Shown piece by piece: positions 11,657 to 20,321 of a DNA stretch of 64,000 nt. Location: NCBI GenBank assembly GCA_010093605.1, contig MU004181.1:2046001-2110000 (forward strand), read 5' to 3'. A program made the translations under genes and the position numbers. Within the stretch, counting starts at the first letter, position 1. Every line of letters begins with the position of its first letter. The notes beneath the pieces were generated by a model. That model did not search any database. It was given only the letters and a program-made list of their open reading frames with translations, and was not told the origin of the DNA. The DNA comes from Lophium mytilinum. Its lineage: Eukaryota.

Positions 11657-13744
11657 ATGGCTGGCAAACGAGGGATGCCCACGGAAATCGAAGCTGGCCT
11701 CGTCGAAGACAGTAGCACGATCCGCAAGCCATTGAAGCGCAAGAAGAGCGGATCAGAGCTCGATCCTAGTAAGTGTCCCTTCAGACTCTAGCCTGACATA
11801 GCATTGCTAACGAAAGGCTCGTAGAAGGAAACCATAGGCGCGCCCGAGCCGAGCATCCTCCCTTCCTCGGACACACCTACGAAGCCGAAGGCGATCCTGA
11901 TGACAACTTCGACGAAGGCTCACTTGGTGATATTAGTGAAGCCCGTCATCTTCGACGAGACCAGCTTCAGACAAGTCTGCAGCAAGTAACACGTTCTTAC
12001 ACGCGCTCGGAATCTTTTCGCGCCGAAATCGAGGAGGAGGCGACGACTGTGCGCTCGTCTGGAAAGCAGCTTGTAACCAGTTTGAAGCCAGTGACTCGGT
12101 CTACCCCTACTTTATCCAATGGTATCAAGAAGACAATTAGCGAGTATCTGGCCGACTTTCTCGAGGAGCGAGATTTCACGGCGTCCTTGGAGCTTGGAAG
12201 AGACAGCCGTGTTCATATAACTCTGTCCTTTCCAAGCACGAGTATGAGCACAATCAGCCTGTTGCCACCGAAGGAGAGTACCAACAGTCAAGCTCTAACA
12301 TTCTTGCCACCAGTGGTCTCCACCGAGGTCGATCCTTGTAAAGTTGTTCCCTCAATCAAGGCGTTGACTGTAGAAGATGGTCTTAGACCCTTTGAAACGA
12401 TCGATGCTCCAACGTCTCTGTCCTTTACTACACCATCATCGAGGTCCCCGTTGGGAACCAAGGCACCTATCGCGAAACGTGGTAGAGGCAGACCCAAGAA
12501 GACAGAGGGAAGAAAGCCTGAAGTCTTAGTCGGGAATGCTCTCATTGGAGGCGAGGGGCTGGGACACGATATGGAGCTCTCTGGCAAGCTAATCGAGTCA
12601 CTTGATGAGACCATGTACTCGTACGACGAAGTCGCCAGCGGCTTTGGGAGTGCATTACTTACATACCCGTTACAAGCTACAGACTGGTCCGGGGGCATGC
12701 AAACTACCCTTGCCATGCCCAAGTCGATTTCAACTCCAGCGGCTCCTCTTTCTACGAAGACTTCGCGTACGGACGACGAGCTACTCGATCCTTGGGCGAA
12801 TTTCTCAGTCTTGAAACGCTACCAGATGGAACCGTCAGTCTTCTCGAATAAAGGCCGCTTTCGTCTTCCTTACCAACACCTCACGGAGAAATCTAAAGAG
12901 CTCCCCCAACCAACGAGAATCAGAAAGACACAGAGTAGGGTGCTGAGGAACAGAGACACCAACCAAATGGTTAAGATCGACTTGAGAGTGGTCTTTGTGG
13001 CTGCCGTAGAGGTCCATCCTATGTCGGCGACAAAGCGAATCATCATCGGATTCACGCGGGCAAGTGGCGAAGCACCAGCATATGGGACTCCTGGAATGAC
13101 TAAGCGGGCTGCTATGGCAGTCAAAGCATTCGCTGATCTGGACGGCGATGCAGGCGTGGTCAAAGTCGCTATACAAAGAACCAAAGTGAGCAGCCGTGCC
13201 TCTTTCTTCGATGACTCGCGCAAAGAGAGGACAGATGCCTATATCGTTGAGATGGTCGCTGTTCTCAACGCCGCCAAGAATGGAAGAGAGGTGGTCTTAC
13301 TTTCAGTTGGAGCGGACGGCTTCACGACGAACGTTGACAACTTTGTCTGGCTTGCAGAAACCTGGCCGCTCCTTGAGCTTAATTTGGTGGTTGTCGTACC
13401 CTCTTGGTTCCCCGGTGATAAGGCTGTATTCCGGGAAGCAACTAATGGTATTCGGTATGGGAGATTCTCTATCAAGCACGTTGCGGCAGCCGTCCTTCAA
13501 AAGGACAGGAGTGGCGCGGTCGGCGAATTACTGCGCGTGTGTGAACAGATCAATATGGGCAAAGAACAGTACGTTCCCCTTCTGTTTCTATGTCGTTCCT
13601 GGCTAATGTTACTATTGTAGCTTGGAGAACCGCCCTACCTTGACTACTATGACTTCCCATCGCTCAACCTTTCGAATTCATCCAGACACCGAGGACGACG
13701 ACGGCGTCGGCCCTGAGCTTCGCAAGTCTCGCGCCCGTCACTGA
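11657..13744 (+). CDS. AT-hook protein with a serine-recombinase(resolvase)-like C-terminal domain; exons 11657-11768, 11825-13568, 13621-13744
   Basis: Two GT-AG introns with GCTAAC/GCTAAT branch points keep the frame. KRGRGRPKK AT-hook. IIIGFTRASG...VSSR...VVLLSVGADGFTTN follows the resolvase GYxRVS...SG...DRLxR layout. Confidence 0.6.
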
Positions 13745-15019
13745 ACATACCACCATACTACTTGTCGCAGTTACCCTTGATCTCGATTACATCGAGTGAC
13801 ACGTTGTCCCCTTCATATGGCTTCAAACCGGTTTGAAGCAGAATACTCTCTGTACTCCTTGTGAGTAGCGTTTCAGTATCCCTAACCCCATTCTCGAAGC
13901 TAATCAAGTAACTTGATAGTTCCTTCACGAATCCCATACTGCCACTGCATACTCGTGCGATACTATCTCCATCGCGGAGCGCTCTCTGCGACTCGGCTTT
14001 TCGGAGATCTTATCTTTGCCCTCAAACCGGTTCGTGACAAGATGCGGATGTATTTTCTGTCTCCCTTGACTAATTGCTCATAGACAGGGATGTCTTTTCA
14101 CTTTCGGCGCTTGCGAGGCTTGTGGCGCCTATTTCGTACCCCTCTATTCATTATATCAGAACCTCAACACGACAAATCGACAATTTCAAAGCTTTTCAAA
14201 TCCTCGAATATGCGTTATCTCTCGCGCCCAGCATCCCGGATAGACCAAACGTCCCTCCTTGCTATATTCAACCCTTTTGAGGATATATGCAGCGAGTGAT
14301 GGACTGTCAGGGTGGTCCTACTGAACTTTGTTAAGATAATGTCTTTACAGACTAGTCTGTAGAAAGTAATCACGACTTAGCGTTACACAGCAACATGTAT
14401 CCTGATCAAAATACAATCGTGTCATAAATATGAATGTCGCTTTCAATTCCTCAGGGGTGCACTTATTCACCACTGTTCGCAGCGCCTTTCAAAGCAGTGT
14501 GAGAGATTATGATGTGACCCTGAAGTTTCGACGGCGAGAGTTAGCCCTGGACGAGAAGTAGTTCTTGGAGCTGTTAAAGCTATTGTTTGGGGTGCTTTGG
14601 GCCGTCCTGAGTCATGGAAATGTAACGTTTGATGATTGATGTTCAAATCAGGCTTTGCGGAGTTGAGATAGATGCAAGAACGTGAATCACCTGACTGCTG
14701 ATGTTCTAGGTGAGTTGTCACTTTTCAGGTAGGATTTGGAGCCCCCGGGCACCGTTCTAGTAATCAGGTTTGTGAGCGTGTTCGTTGAATATACTAATGA
14801 TACAGTAAGTAGCTACAGGATGTACCAGCTTCAAACTAGTATCAAGGTCCGAGAGCCAAGAATCGAGCTATGGATTTTGAAGTGCCGGCCGACATCGGCA
14901 TGAGCGCCGAACCGAACATTTAGGATATAGCCCACGCCCCACTAATACGAATATCGCTTTGTCACAGTAAATTGAGTAGGTACTTATAAGAGATAATTTC
15001 TTGGCTCTCCAAAATCATC

Positions 15020-15154
15020 AGCTCAGTGGCGCAGCGGAAGCGCGCCGGGCTCATATACAATATGTGCTACCCGGAGGACTGCGGTAAGTCAGCGTCTAAA
15101 TTTGGAGTTCGAATCCCACTAAGACCATATCAGGATCGAAACCGCACTGAGCTA
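15020..15154 (+). tRNA. Initiator tRNA-Met(CAT) with a canonical intron (15056-15068) and a 50-nt spliceosomal-type intron in the T stem (15084-15133)
   Basis: Spliced form AGCTCAG TG GCGC AGCGGAA GCGC G CCGGG CTCATAA CCCGG AGGAC TGCGG ATCGAAA CCGCA CTGAGCT A = 72 nt, all four stems fully paired. A1-U72, ATCGAAA T loop and GGG/CCC anticodon stem are initiator hallmarks. T tracts follow. Confidence 0.92.
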
Positions 15155-15272
15155 GATCGCATTATACTTTTTGCATTTCTTTTTCTCCCGAGGTGTTTTC
15201 AAGTCCTTTTTTTTCTCATCTTTTTGCTCTCTTGCTTTATTATGACTGGTCTTTTTGACTTCTTCTTGGTTC

Positions 15273-15397
15273 ACTGCGGATCGAAACCGCACTGAGCTAT
15301 TCTAGCATTCTTTTTGCTTTTTAGATGTTCTTTTGGTCTTCTCTAGGCTTGTGGGCGCCCTACGAAGGGTGGCGAGCTATCGAAACCACACTGAGCT
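15273..15397 (+). repeat. Two extra copies of the tRNA-iMet 3' end (15273-15299 intact and intronless; 15379-15397 degenerate)
   Basis: ACTGCGGATCGAAACCGCACTGAGCTA and ATCGAAACCACACTGAGCT, each followed by T-rich sequence. Confidence 0.9.
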
Positions 15398-16683
15398 GAA
15401 TCTCGTCACTCTTCTAGCATTTTCTCTCATTCCAGGGCGCTCCCAACATCCTGGCAGCTTCATCTTTTTGTTTCTGTTGCGTTATTGCTTTATGACTAGC
15501 CCTTGCGAATTTTTTTGTGGGTTCGTAGGCGGGGCATTCCTGAGTGCGGGACCCCCACCATGAATGCCACCACACGCGAACTGACAACTTTAGCATTACA
15601 AAACACTTCGAACATTTTCTTCGAGGGTATTGGAAGAAGTTCGAGCTATAATTATGGTATACGGGAATGGCTTATAGCATCAACTTTTGAAGTGATGTTT
15701 ATAACTTCAATTTCGCTCCCCGGGAGTCATTTGGCACGCAACCTGTACACTGTTCCTTACAGTGTATGTACATCCGCAAGGCCGAACATTCCTCATATTT
15801 TCATATCAACTATCTGAATAGGCCCAAATGTTCATGGCTAGTGTGCAGTTCAGATGAGAATAATCTAAAGTAGCAATTTTCCAGCGCCTAGCTATTTATT
15901 TCTCCACCCTCCAACATCCCTCTTCGGGTATTGGGAGTGCTCGATACGCCGTTAGTCCGTGAATTAACTACGCTCAACATCTGAAAGATCATCCACAAGT
16001 CTACATGCAGGTGCCGCTGTCTGTAGTGGCCTGGTAACCTGATCGATTGTTCAAAAAGGCTCACTTCTGCCTGGATTTGAACTTTGAAAATTCATTGGCG
16101 CACTTCAGACGGTGTCAGACAAGTGTACATATTTATCTCCGAATGTAGGAGAAAGAAGTCGCTCCCAGCTTGAGATTGCGAGTCATCGCGAGTTTTATGA
16201 GGGTTTTAGAGTGCCCAACGCTCTCTGTCCATTCTCTAGATTTGTGCATGCCAAAAATCATTAATCCAATAGCACAATAGCTTCCTGATTTGCATGTGAG
16301 CCATGACGCACAGCCATCAACCCCTCAGGGACCCACAGGGGCAGTTGAAAAACAGATGAGAGCTCAATATTCTCTCCTATAAATAGGTGAATCGACATAG
16401 TATCGTGGCATATGTAAGTAGTGCAAACGATCATTCGCTCTGCCCGAGTTTCGATCTTGGTTCACTCAAAGAAACCGACTCTACGGCGGAGCGCAATCTT
16501 GGAATAGAACCTTGAGGCTAGATCCAGACATGCCAAGCCTGTGTTCAATTCAAGGGTGCGAACACAGCTGGATATATCAGGGTCCAAGATATTTGTAGAA
16601 TACAAATTCGTCCTTTACTGCGATCTAAGTCGTGGTCGTGATGCTCGATTACAGAATTTGGACTTGACACTGGGTTCTCGAGT

Positions 16684-16732
16684 TGACTTACCGCAGCCTT
16701 CCGGGTAGCACATAGCGTATATGAGCCTGGCG
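16684..16732 (-). repeat. Inverted partial copy of tRNA-iMet 15043-15091
   Basis: Reverse complement CGCCAGGCTCATATACGCTATGTGCTACCCGGAAGGCTGCGGTAAGTCA. Confidence 0.9.
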
Positions 16733-17438
16733 ATGTTATGATCAGAGAGGACGTAGAGTAAGAGAGCTACCTGAAAAGCTTTGATACCTAGCCCAACGAG
16801 CTGTTGAAGATGACGAAGTAGCCCTGGGTCGCAGTGACCTTAGAACCTTGGAGCCACCCCACAACCCCTCAGCCGGCAGCCGAGCGCCTCTGGAGCTCGT
16901 CGCCCACCTGTCATCCGTCGCCCATCACCCGCCGTCTGCCTGTCTGTCGCTTCTGCAGTCCATTCTTTGCCTAACCGTAAACTTTCCACCGTGACGATCT
17001 GTCGGAACTTCTCCCCTCGCGCCCTCTCTCTACGACCTCGCGTGCCCAACGAACCAGCCAGCGCACTCCAACACGTCACCCGCGGCAAGACACCCAGTCG
17101 CAGCCAGGACGCAGAGGATATCAGCCTGAAAGAAAAGCTATCTAAGCTGTCGGCGTCCGCCTGGGGCACTTGAGTAGCCGGTAGACTGCTGCCACGACAC
17201 GCTGTGAGCCGCATTCATTACCGCCACAAGCTCCGTCTCGTCTTCACCACCACACCACGCACAACGACTAACTGGCTAGGATTCACATCATAGCCCTGAT
17301 ACCCCCGAAACCTCTGCGCCATCCCGCTCGAGAAAACCAGACGCCTTCCCTGCACATCAGCGCGTTCGCCAGACCGATCTCTTTCCCTCCTTGTCCACTG
17401 CTGCATATCAGCTATCCACTCATCCTCCGGAACTCGCC

Positions 17439-20321
<2,883 letters not shown>

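Follow-up and report, generated by a model that had tools for sequence, protein, structure and literature searches.

A spliced U2-type intron with a B-box-grade motif in an initiator-tRNA gene of Lophium mytilinum

An initiator transfer RNA (tRNA) gene of Lophium mytilinum is interrupted by a spliced, mRNA-type intron, and this intron contains a motif that resembles the B box of RNA polymerase III (Pol III) promoters. The gene, tRNA-Met(CAT), was located at 15020-15154 in a 64-kb stretch of contig MU004181.1 (assembly GCA_010093605.1), which is called the window throughout; coordinates are window positions, on the plus strand unless stated otherwise. It contains two introns and has a 72-nt mature product. 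A 13-nt tRNA-type intron occupies the canonical position 37/38 (15056-15068), and a 50-nt U2-type spliceosomal intron of the form GTAAGT...CTAAG...CAG lies between tRNA positions 52 and 53 (15084-15133). The B-box-grade motif in the longer intron may be a redundant second site for TFIIIC.

A spliceosomal intron in the initiator-tRNA gene

Positions 15084-15133 were cut out by coordinates, and ARAGORN then returned a 72-nt tRNA-Met(CAT) with all stems paired and a 13-nt anticodon-loop intron, for which the program's equivalent placement lies one base rightward. Our own cloverleaf scoring gave the same layout. The perfect cloverleaf was regained by ARAGORN only once the 50-nt insertion had been removed. 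The T loop reads ATCGAAA and the D arm GGCGCAGCGGAAGCGC, both of a kind that we take to be the initiator type, and the T stem is GCGG/CCGC. An A box, TGGCGCAGCGG, covers tRNA positions 8-19 (15027-15037), as read from the sequence with the A-box consensus, and a T5 run resembling a Pol III terminator lies 14 nt after the gene (15168-15172), with more T runs beyond. The tRNA gene is real and hosts both intron types, and both introns must go for a working tRNA to be made. Default ARAGORN and Rfam at gathering scores called no tRNA across the 64-kb window, and no second tRNA gene was detected there. When run in intron mode, ARAGORN mis-joined the 5' half of the gene to a downstream duplicate of its 3' end (15278-15299), giving a false 208-nt 'intron'. 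Because both programs miss the gene and the intron mode mis-joins it, many fungal genomes probably have their initiator-tRNA genes annotated wrongly or listed as absent.

Three sequencing runs were compared with the window. X1 and X2 are DNA runs of the source organism, and X3 carries the label 'RNA?', which is the tool's guess. Apart from three clean skips and a single TT insertion within a T-run, the X3 contigs agree with the window at 0 other letters. The skip over the spliceosomal intron is found in a 468-nt contig (record 8), with 55 and 411 letters flanking the joint. The joint is listed as 15082 to 15133, and a shift of +1 gives GT..AG borders, such that 15083 is joined to 15134 exactly. 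The excised element has its GTAAGT donor at 15084-15089 and its CAG acceptor at 15131-15133, and the site falls in the T stem. The second skip (15543 to 15594) corresponds to 50 nt with GT..AG borders at 15544-15593 (plus strand), and the third (14518 to 14690) corresponds to 171 nt with CT..AC borders, an intron of the opposite strand at 14519-14689 (minus strand). None of the three joints is present in X1 or X2. Since three splice-bordered skips occur within 1.5 kb of X3 and none occurs in the DNA runs, X3 is probably RNA; this is the far likelier reading, and it is carried here as a caveat. The 50-nt element is a genuine, spliced U2-type spliceosomal intron, and the original prediction, made from the letters of the window, was right to call the insertion spliceosomal in type.

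The two outer skips indicate spliced non-coding transcripts leaving the tRNA gene both ways, and no open reading frame (ORF) of note lies between 15400 and 17200. Contigs cannot show transcript starts, and neither the X3 coverage holes, at 14553-14654 and at 14808-15011, nor the end of the contig at 15028 was taken to mark one.

The record 8 contig retains the 13-nt tRNA-type intron (15028-15082, 0 other letters) although the 50-nt intron is gone, so the two introns are removed separately. For the 50-nt intron we infer a branch site at CTAAG (15119-15123) from a comparison of 33 introns (see below), its A at 15122 standing 11 nt ahead of the 3' splice site; the last base of this motif is G, not the Y of CTRAY. 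A tRNA-endonuclease-type intron was considered for the 50-nt element and rejected, given its position at 52/53 rather than 37/38 and a minimum-free-energy fold with no bulge-helix-bulge (BHB) motif around the splice sites, although no dedicated BHB search was run. Canonical tRNA introns sit at 37/38 and are removed by the Sen endonuclease and tRNA ligase. The same gene has one, at 15056-15068, whereas the 50-nt element lies in the T stem with GTAAGT, CTAAG and CAG and is removed while the canonical intron remains. Introns in T arms, in genes with several introns, are also known from archaea and from tRNA-Ile of Cyanidioschyzon merolae (PMC9602550). Unlike the element described here, they are excised by the tRNA endonuclease, which cuts at BHB motifs, and they have neither GT..AG borders nor a branch site.

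The B-box-grade motif within the intron

The sequence GGAGTTCGAATCCC occurs exactly at 15104-15117, and allowing up to 2 mismatches gave no second copy in the window. It is directly followed by ACTAAGACCA (15118-15127), and both lie inside the GTAAGT...CAG insertion, as first described. The insertion was scored at 9 positions against the B-box consensus, GGTTCGANNCC. The best intronic match is AGTTCGAATCC (15106-15116), which scores 8/9, lies in sense orientation between the A box and the native B box, and starts 68 nt past the A box. The claim of a B box inside the intron stands as that of a B-box-grade motif in the orientation of the gene. Composition-matched shuffles of this intron reached 8/9 in 0.21% of 200,000 trials (P = 0.0021), and at least one of 33 shuffled introns did so in 2.15% of 2000 trials. 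The whole window holds 5 matches at 8/9 or better on the plus strand and 13 on the minus strand; 3 of the 5 on the plus strand cluster at 15106-15288.

The key positions of a B box are G53, T55, C56, A58 and C61, and AGTTCGAATCC has all of them. The intronic motif is of the elongator type (T54, T60), and the native box is of the initiator type (A54, A60). The motif is thus both real and out of the ordinary, although attention was drawn to it post hoc.

The intron had also been thought to resemble, and perhaps to derive from, the 3' end of another tRNA. In the canonical register, TGGAG against CCCAC around a 7-nt TTCGAAT loop forms 2 of 5 pairs. The Rfam tRNA model, applied to the 5' exon followed by the intronic arm and CTAAG, gave 15.9 bits (E = 1.9) against a gathering score of 29. 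The ACTAAG that would follow the arm is the putative branch site, and to our knowledge nuclear tRNA genes do not encode CCA. A tRNA 3' end was rejected on the stem, the branch site and the Rfam score, and derivation from another tRNA is not supported, the gene's own 3' end being the one tRNA sequence of this genome that was compared. What looked like a tRNA 3' end would be two separate things, the B-box-grade 11-mer AGTTCGAATCC and the branch site ACTAAG. A blastn-short search with the 50 nt against the window and 104 metagenomic loci returned chance words of at most 10 nt.

Related genes in metagenomes and partial copies at the locus

Metagenome contigs were scanned for initiator-type D arms and T loops spaced too far apart, which yielded the 104 loci. 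One insertion, or one insertion and a canonical intron, was removed by brute force and the resulting cloverleaf was scored out of 30. A GT..AG insertion of 50-59 nt within a near-perfect initiator cloverleaf (29-30 of 30) was found at 34 loci, with 32 distinct introns; L011, L064, L030, L062, L016, L082 and L061 are examples. Loci with GT..AG inserts and cloverleaf scores of 24-26 of 30 were dropped (L002, L025, L041 and L068), as were L012 for its internal repeats, L003 and L066 for long canonical introns, four loci with two tRNA pieces or two genes in the matched span (L040, L065, L079 and L103), and about 60 freshwater loci of another class.

The window and the metagenomes together give 33 distinct introns at eight tRNA positions, stated here as the 0-based index in the product. 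The region of the D-stem 3' strand and position 26 holds 3 distinct introns at index 22, 3 at index 23, 16 at index 24 and 3 at index 25. The anticodon loop holds 2 (index 32), the variable loop 3 at index 44 and 1 at index 45, and the T stem 2 at index 51, which is the site used in the window. A CTRAY-like motif lies 9-17 nt before the 3' splice site in 33/33 distinct introns. A run of at least four T residues follows within 30 nt in all 32 metagenomic genes and within 17 nt in 30 of them, compared with 13% and 7%, respectively, of control windows on the same contigs. Because these downstream T-runs are far above the control, the loci are read as genes of Pol III style that carry mRNA-type introns. 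Initiator-tRNA genes of Pol III type with spliceosomal introns are widespread. Prokaryote genome contigs scanned for introns at position 52/53 gave 0 matches.

A search of the literature found no description of spliceosomal introns in tRNA genes, most subscription journals being outside its reach. A 2014 review of tRNA introns contains 0 occurrences of 'spliceosom' (PMC4090602). In a 2025 paper, spliceosomal introns are assigned to mRNAs and to other transcripts made by RNA polymerase II (Pol II), and the intron types are called unrelated (PMC12530127).

Several features of the scanned loci lie outside the splicing question. L025 and L033 also carry a canonical intron of 16-17 nt, as the window gene does. 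In genes of the index-24 family (L009, L011, L042, L046, L064, L073, L094 and others), the word CATCGAAC or CATCGAGC lies some 30-40 nt upstream, and TATATA often accompanies it near -54. This word may be an upstream promoter element, in place of which the window gene has TATAAG at -35 to -30 (14985-14990). The role of TATAAG in the tRNA gene is uncertain because a TATA-like word at -45 to -20 occurs in just 6/32 metagenomic genes. The class of about 60 loci, mostly freshwater (for example L004, L006, L017 and L096), consists of tRNA-like genes with the same D arm and T loop and an anticodon loop with CAC or TAC. Its inserts are 52-80 nt long without GT..AG, lie near index 28 in the anticodon stem and have complementary arms CCGTCCTC...GAGGATGG; they may be endonuclease-type introns at a non-canonical site. 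L003 is an initiator-tRNA gene whose 49-nt intron at the canonical position holds TTCGAAT twice, an anticodon-arm segment is repeated internally in L012, and L065, L079 and L103 are tandem pairs of initiator-tRNA genes 14 nt apart. A check of the flanks of the distinct GT..AG loci and L040 for extra initiator-type B boxes, in which the matched span itself was skipped, gave none; the second 3'-end copy at L040 falls within that span.

The locus in the window contains partial copies of its own gene. An exact direct copy of the last 22 nt, comprising the native B box and the acceptor 3' strand without the intron, lies at 15278-15299, and a degenerate one (18/22) lies at 15377-15398. They stand 145 and 244 nt downstream between related T-rich spacers, and the locus has four B-box-like sites in about 280 bp (15106, 15133, 15278 and 15377). 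A similar duplicated 3' end lies behind an intron-less initiator-tRNA gene at L040. An inverted partial copy of 15043-15091 (49 nt, 90%) is found at 16684-16732 on the minus strand, and the comparison with the sequencing runs showed it as well (records 1, 4 and 9). It spans the anticodon arm, the 13-nt intron, the variable loop, the 5' strand of the T stem and the first 8 nt of the spliceosomal intron, GTAAGTCA. Because the copy includes this intron start, the spliceosomal intron predates the inverted duplication. About 235 nt further along the minus strand, GATCGAAAC occurs in a weak look-alike of a tRNA 3' end (16450-16470).

Two other initiator-like loci were found in the same genome (X1/X2 records 2/5 and 3/6). 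They match the window only as far as GCGCAGCGG (15037) and diverge after G18. One continues TAAGAATCAATTTC..., with a possible GTAAGA donor in the D loop. In the other, the match picks up again after 203 letters, at 15130-15154, and a T7 run comes next. In X1 and X2, no contig other than the locus itself covered 15038-15083 and no uninterrupted initiator copy was seen, although coverage holes prove nothing. The tRNA gene lies between a 607-codon ORF (11797-13620) and a gene for an SNF1-like kinase, which is downstream at about 17300-20300. The best Atlas clusters for a protein encoded nearby are mostly from Ascomycota, as befits an ascomycete source.

Readings of the intronic motif and their meaning

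In the proposed mechanism, the gene is a live one of Pol III type. The spliceosome would remove 15084-15133 with GTAAGT as donor, the A of CTAAG (15122) as branch point and CAG as acceptor, and tRNA endonuclease and ligase would remove the 13-nt anticodon-loop intron, so that the transcript would need both machines. The motif AGTTCGAATCC would be a redundant second docking site for the B-box-binding part of TFIIIC. It would act like the B block in the intron of Schizosaccharomyces pombe U6, yet it would be dispensable. We give this favoured reading, in which a genuine spliceosomal intron houses a redundant second TFIIIC site, somewhat below an even chance. In its favour are the 8/9 score and its rarity in shuffles, the key B-box positions, the sense orientation at 68 bp from the A box, the clustering of three of the five plus-strand matches at this locus, the downstream T-runs of the metagenomic genes and the U6 precedent. 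The sequence, the restored cloverleaf, the exact joint in a probable RNA contig, the rarity of the motif and the terminator-like T-runs are observed, and the choice of branch site, TFIIIC binding and any effect on transcription are what we infer.

Several observations weigh against a working second site. The insertion adjoins the 5' edge of the native initiator-type B box, GGATCGAAACC (15133-15143), as originally stated. That statement overlooked that the native box is uninterrupted in the DNA: the last G of the intron stands in for G52 and is the first base of the box. The native box starts 27 nt downstream of the intronic one and 95 bp past the A box, compared with 68 bp for the intronic motif. 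Because the native box is intact, the intronic motif would not be the source of the promoter, and nothing appears to require a second B box. Changes in the spacing of the A and B boxes have only minor effects since the TFIIIC linker is flexible, according to the 2014 review (PMC4090602). The first consensus position in AGTTCGAATCC is A, not G. The scores of the other introns fall short of it, with 0/32 at 8/9, one at 7, five at 6 and the rest at 4-5, and these introns leave the native B box at about 85-95 bp from the A box. The only other intron at the T-stem site (L061, identical to L063) has TCTTCGAACTC, at 6/9. The suggestion that the intron supplies the TFIIIC site is thus not supported, given an intact native box and no 8/9 match in 32 introns that displace it equally. 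Nor does the motif recur as it had been expected to in orthologous introns, the comparison here being with metagenomic initiator-tRNA introns that are not sister-species orthologues. In favour of some role, the word TTCGAA is present in 4/33 distinct introns against 0.37 expected, including both T-stem-site introns, and TCGAA is present in 7/33 against 1.24 expected, but this enrichment comes partly from one homologous intron family (index 24) and the counts are not independent. Finally, the X3 contig crosses at least five T-runs to 15543 and beyond, with contigs to past 15900. Because it passes T-runs that should stop Pol III, the spliced RNA in X3 is probably of Pol II type or the result of read-through, in which case B boxes would have no bearing on it.

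These points bear on four other explanations. The motif could lack any promoter role and have arisen by chance where an ordinary short fungal intron is neutral in sequence, a CGAAT or GAAT word a few bases upstream of the branch site perhaps contributing, with TFIIIC using the native B box alone. This is the main rival, and we regard it as rather unlikely. It is in keeping with the intact native box, with scores of at most 6/9 in 31/32 other introns and 7/9 in one, with the 18 matches at 8/9 or better on the two strands of the window, and with the post hoc choice of the motif by a reader seeking oddities. GAAT occurs in 17/33 introns, often 10-12 nt before the branch motif, so part of the match could be a family trait. 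Chance is opposed by the shuffles (P = 0.0021 for the window intron, 0.0215 for at least one of the 33) and by the presence of all key B-box positions. Descent from a shared motif is also unproven: the 3' half of the window intron scored at best 9 against the metagenomic introns, compared with a null mean of 7.4 (P = 0.19), and a shared 'TTCGAAT-N-CACTRAC' module was not established. An origin as a relic is improbable in our view. Here, the central part of the intron would have decayed from a duplicate that took in T loop, acceptor strand and trailer, either of the gene itself or of another tRNA, and that was produced by the same local duplication activity that lies behind the two downstream 3'-end copies and the inverted fragment 1.6 kb off. 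Within the intron, TCGAATCC-CACTAAGACCATATC can be aligned with TCGAAACCGCACTGAG-CTAGATC, which is the 3' end and trailer of the gene itself, and the intron aligns with the 3' exon alone at a local score of 18, against 9.85 ± 1.93 for shuffles (P = 0.0032). The three other partial tRNA copies at the locus and the duplicated 3' end at L040 fit the same origin. However, the similarity is not significant outside the T-loop/B-box part (P = 0.19), CACTAAG is accounted for by the branch site, the T stem forms 2/5 pairs, and the first 20 nt of the intron match nothing. The motif is moreover of the elongator type while its supposed source is of the initiator type, and blastn found no other copy in the window or the 104 metagenomic loci.

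A stronger form of the promoter reading makes the intronic B box the operative TFIIIC site, the native box (A54, A60) being insufficient alone at 95 bp. The intronic box is nearer the elongator consensus and the usual A-B spacing, and S. pombe U6 depends on its intronic B block (PMC5855946). The 32 intron-bearing initiator-tRNA genes nevertheless have a native box only, at similar spacing, and all have Pol III-type T-runs. Initiator-tRNA genes in general work with an initiator-type B box, and we consider the stronger form very improbable. It is equally hard to credit that the locus is chiefly a Pol II non-coding unit whose transcript the intron serves, with the tRNA decaying as a pseudogene and the B boxes playing no part. 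This explanation would account for X3 contigs that run from 15028 across many T-runs to past 15900 with a second 50-nt GT..AG skip at 15544-15593. It is countered by the intact stems of the cloverleaf without both introns, by 32 metagenomic genes that share the design with perfect or near-perfect cloverleaves, and by X1 and X2, in which no uninterrupted copy was seen, with the reservation on coverage holes given above.

The redundant-site reading has one close parallel. In S. pombe U6, the B block sits in a spliceosomal intron (PMC5855946, citing Tani & Ohshima 1989 and Frendewey 1990), and the original prediction was apt in naming this precedent. Both are Pol III-type genes with an A box, a T-run terminator and a GT..AG intron of about 50 nt that holds a sense match to the B-box consensus. 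U6 has no other B block and its intronic one is the promoter element, whereas an intact native B box is present here 27 nt downstream, and the host here is a tRNA gene that also carries a tRNA-type intron. B boxes outside tRNA genes are known as well, namely the external B box of Dictyostelium and the ETC and COC sites of yeast. These, too, are additional B boxes in the neighbourhood of a tRNA gene, with the capacity to bind TFIIIC. Unlike the motif described here, which is inside a spliceosomal intron, they lie outside the transcribed gene, and the two downstream B-box-like sites in the window differ from them in being plain duplicates of the tRNA 3' end.

The textbook separation of three intron types places spliceosomal introns in Pol II transcripts and has tRNA introns cut by endonuclease (PMC12530127). 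One tRNA gene in L. mytilinum has both intron types, and the spliced mRNA-type intron carries a motif of Pol III promoter grade. Taken alone, the B-box claim has moderate interest; what deserves follow-up is its setting, in which an intron of mRNA type is spliced although it interrupts an initiator-tRNA gene of Pol III type, and is one of at least 33 such introns at eight positions. The combined proposition, that the essential initiator tRNA of this fungus and of many other ascomycetes is made from spliceosome-dependent Pol III-type genes and that the intronic B box is a working TFIIIC site, is unlikely to hold in full. If it did, this would be the second Pol III promoter element in a spliceosomal intron, after that of fission-yeast U6, and the first in a tRNA gene, and the availability of initiator tRNA would be tied to the activity of the spliceosome. 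If the motif binds TFIIIC, the U6 arrangement would not be a one-off, and Pol III promoter elements could settle in the introns of tRNA genes.
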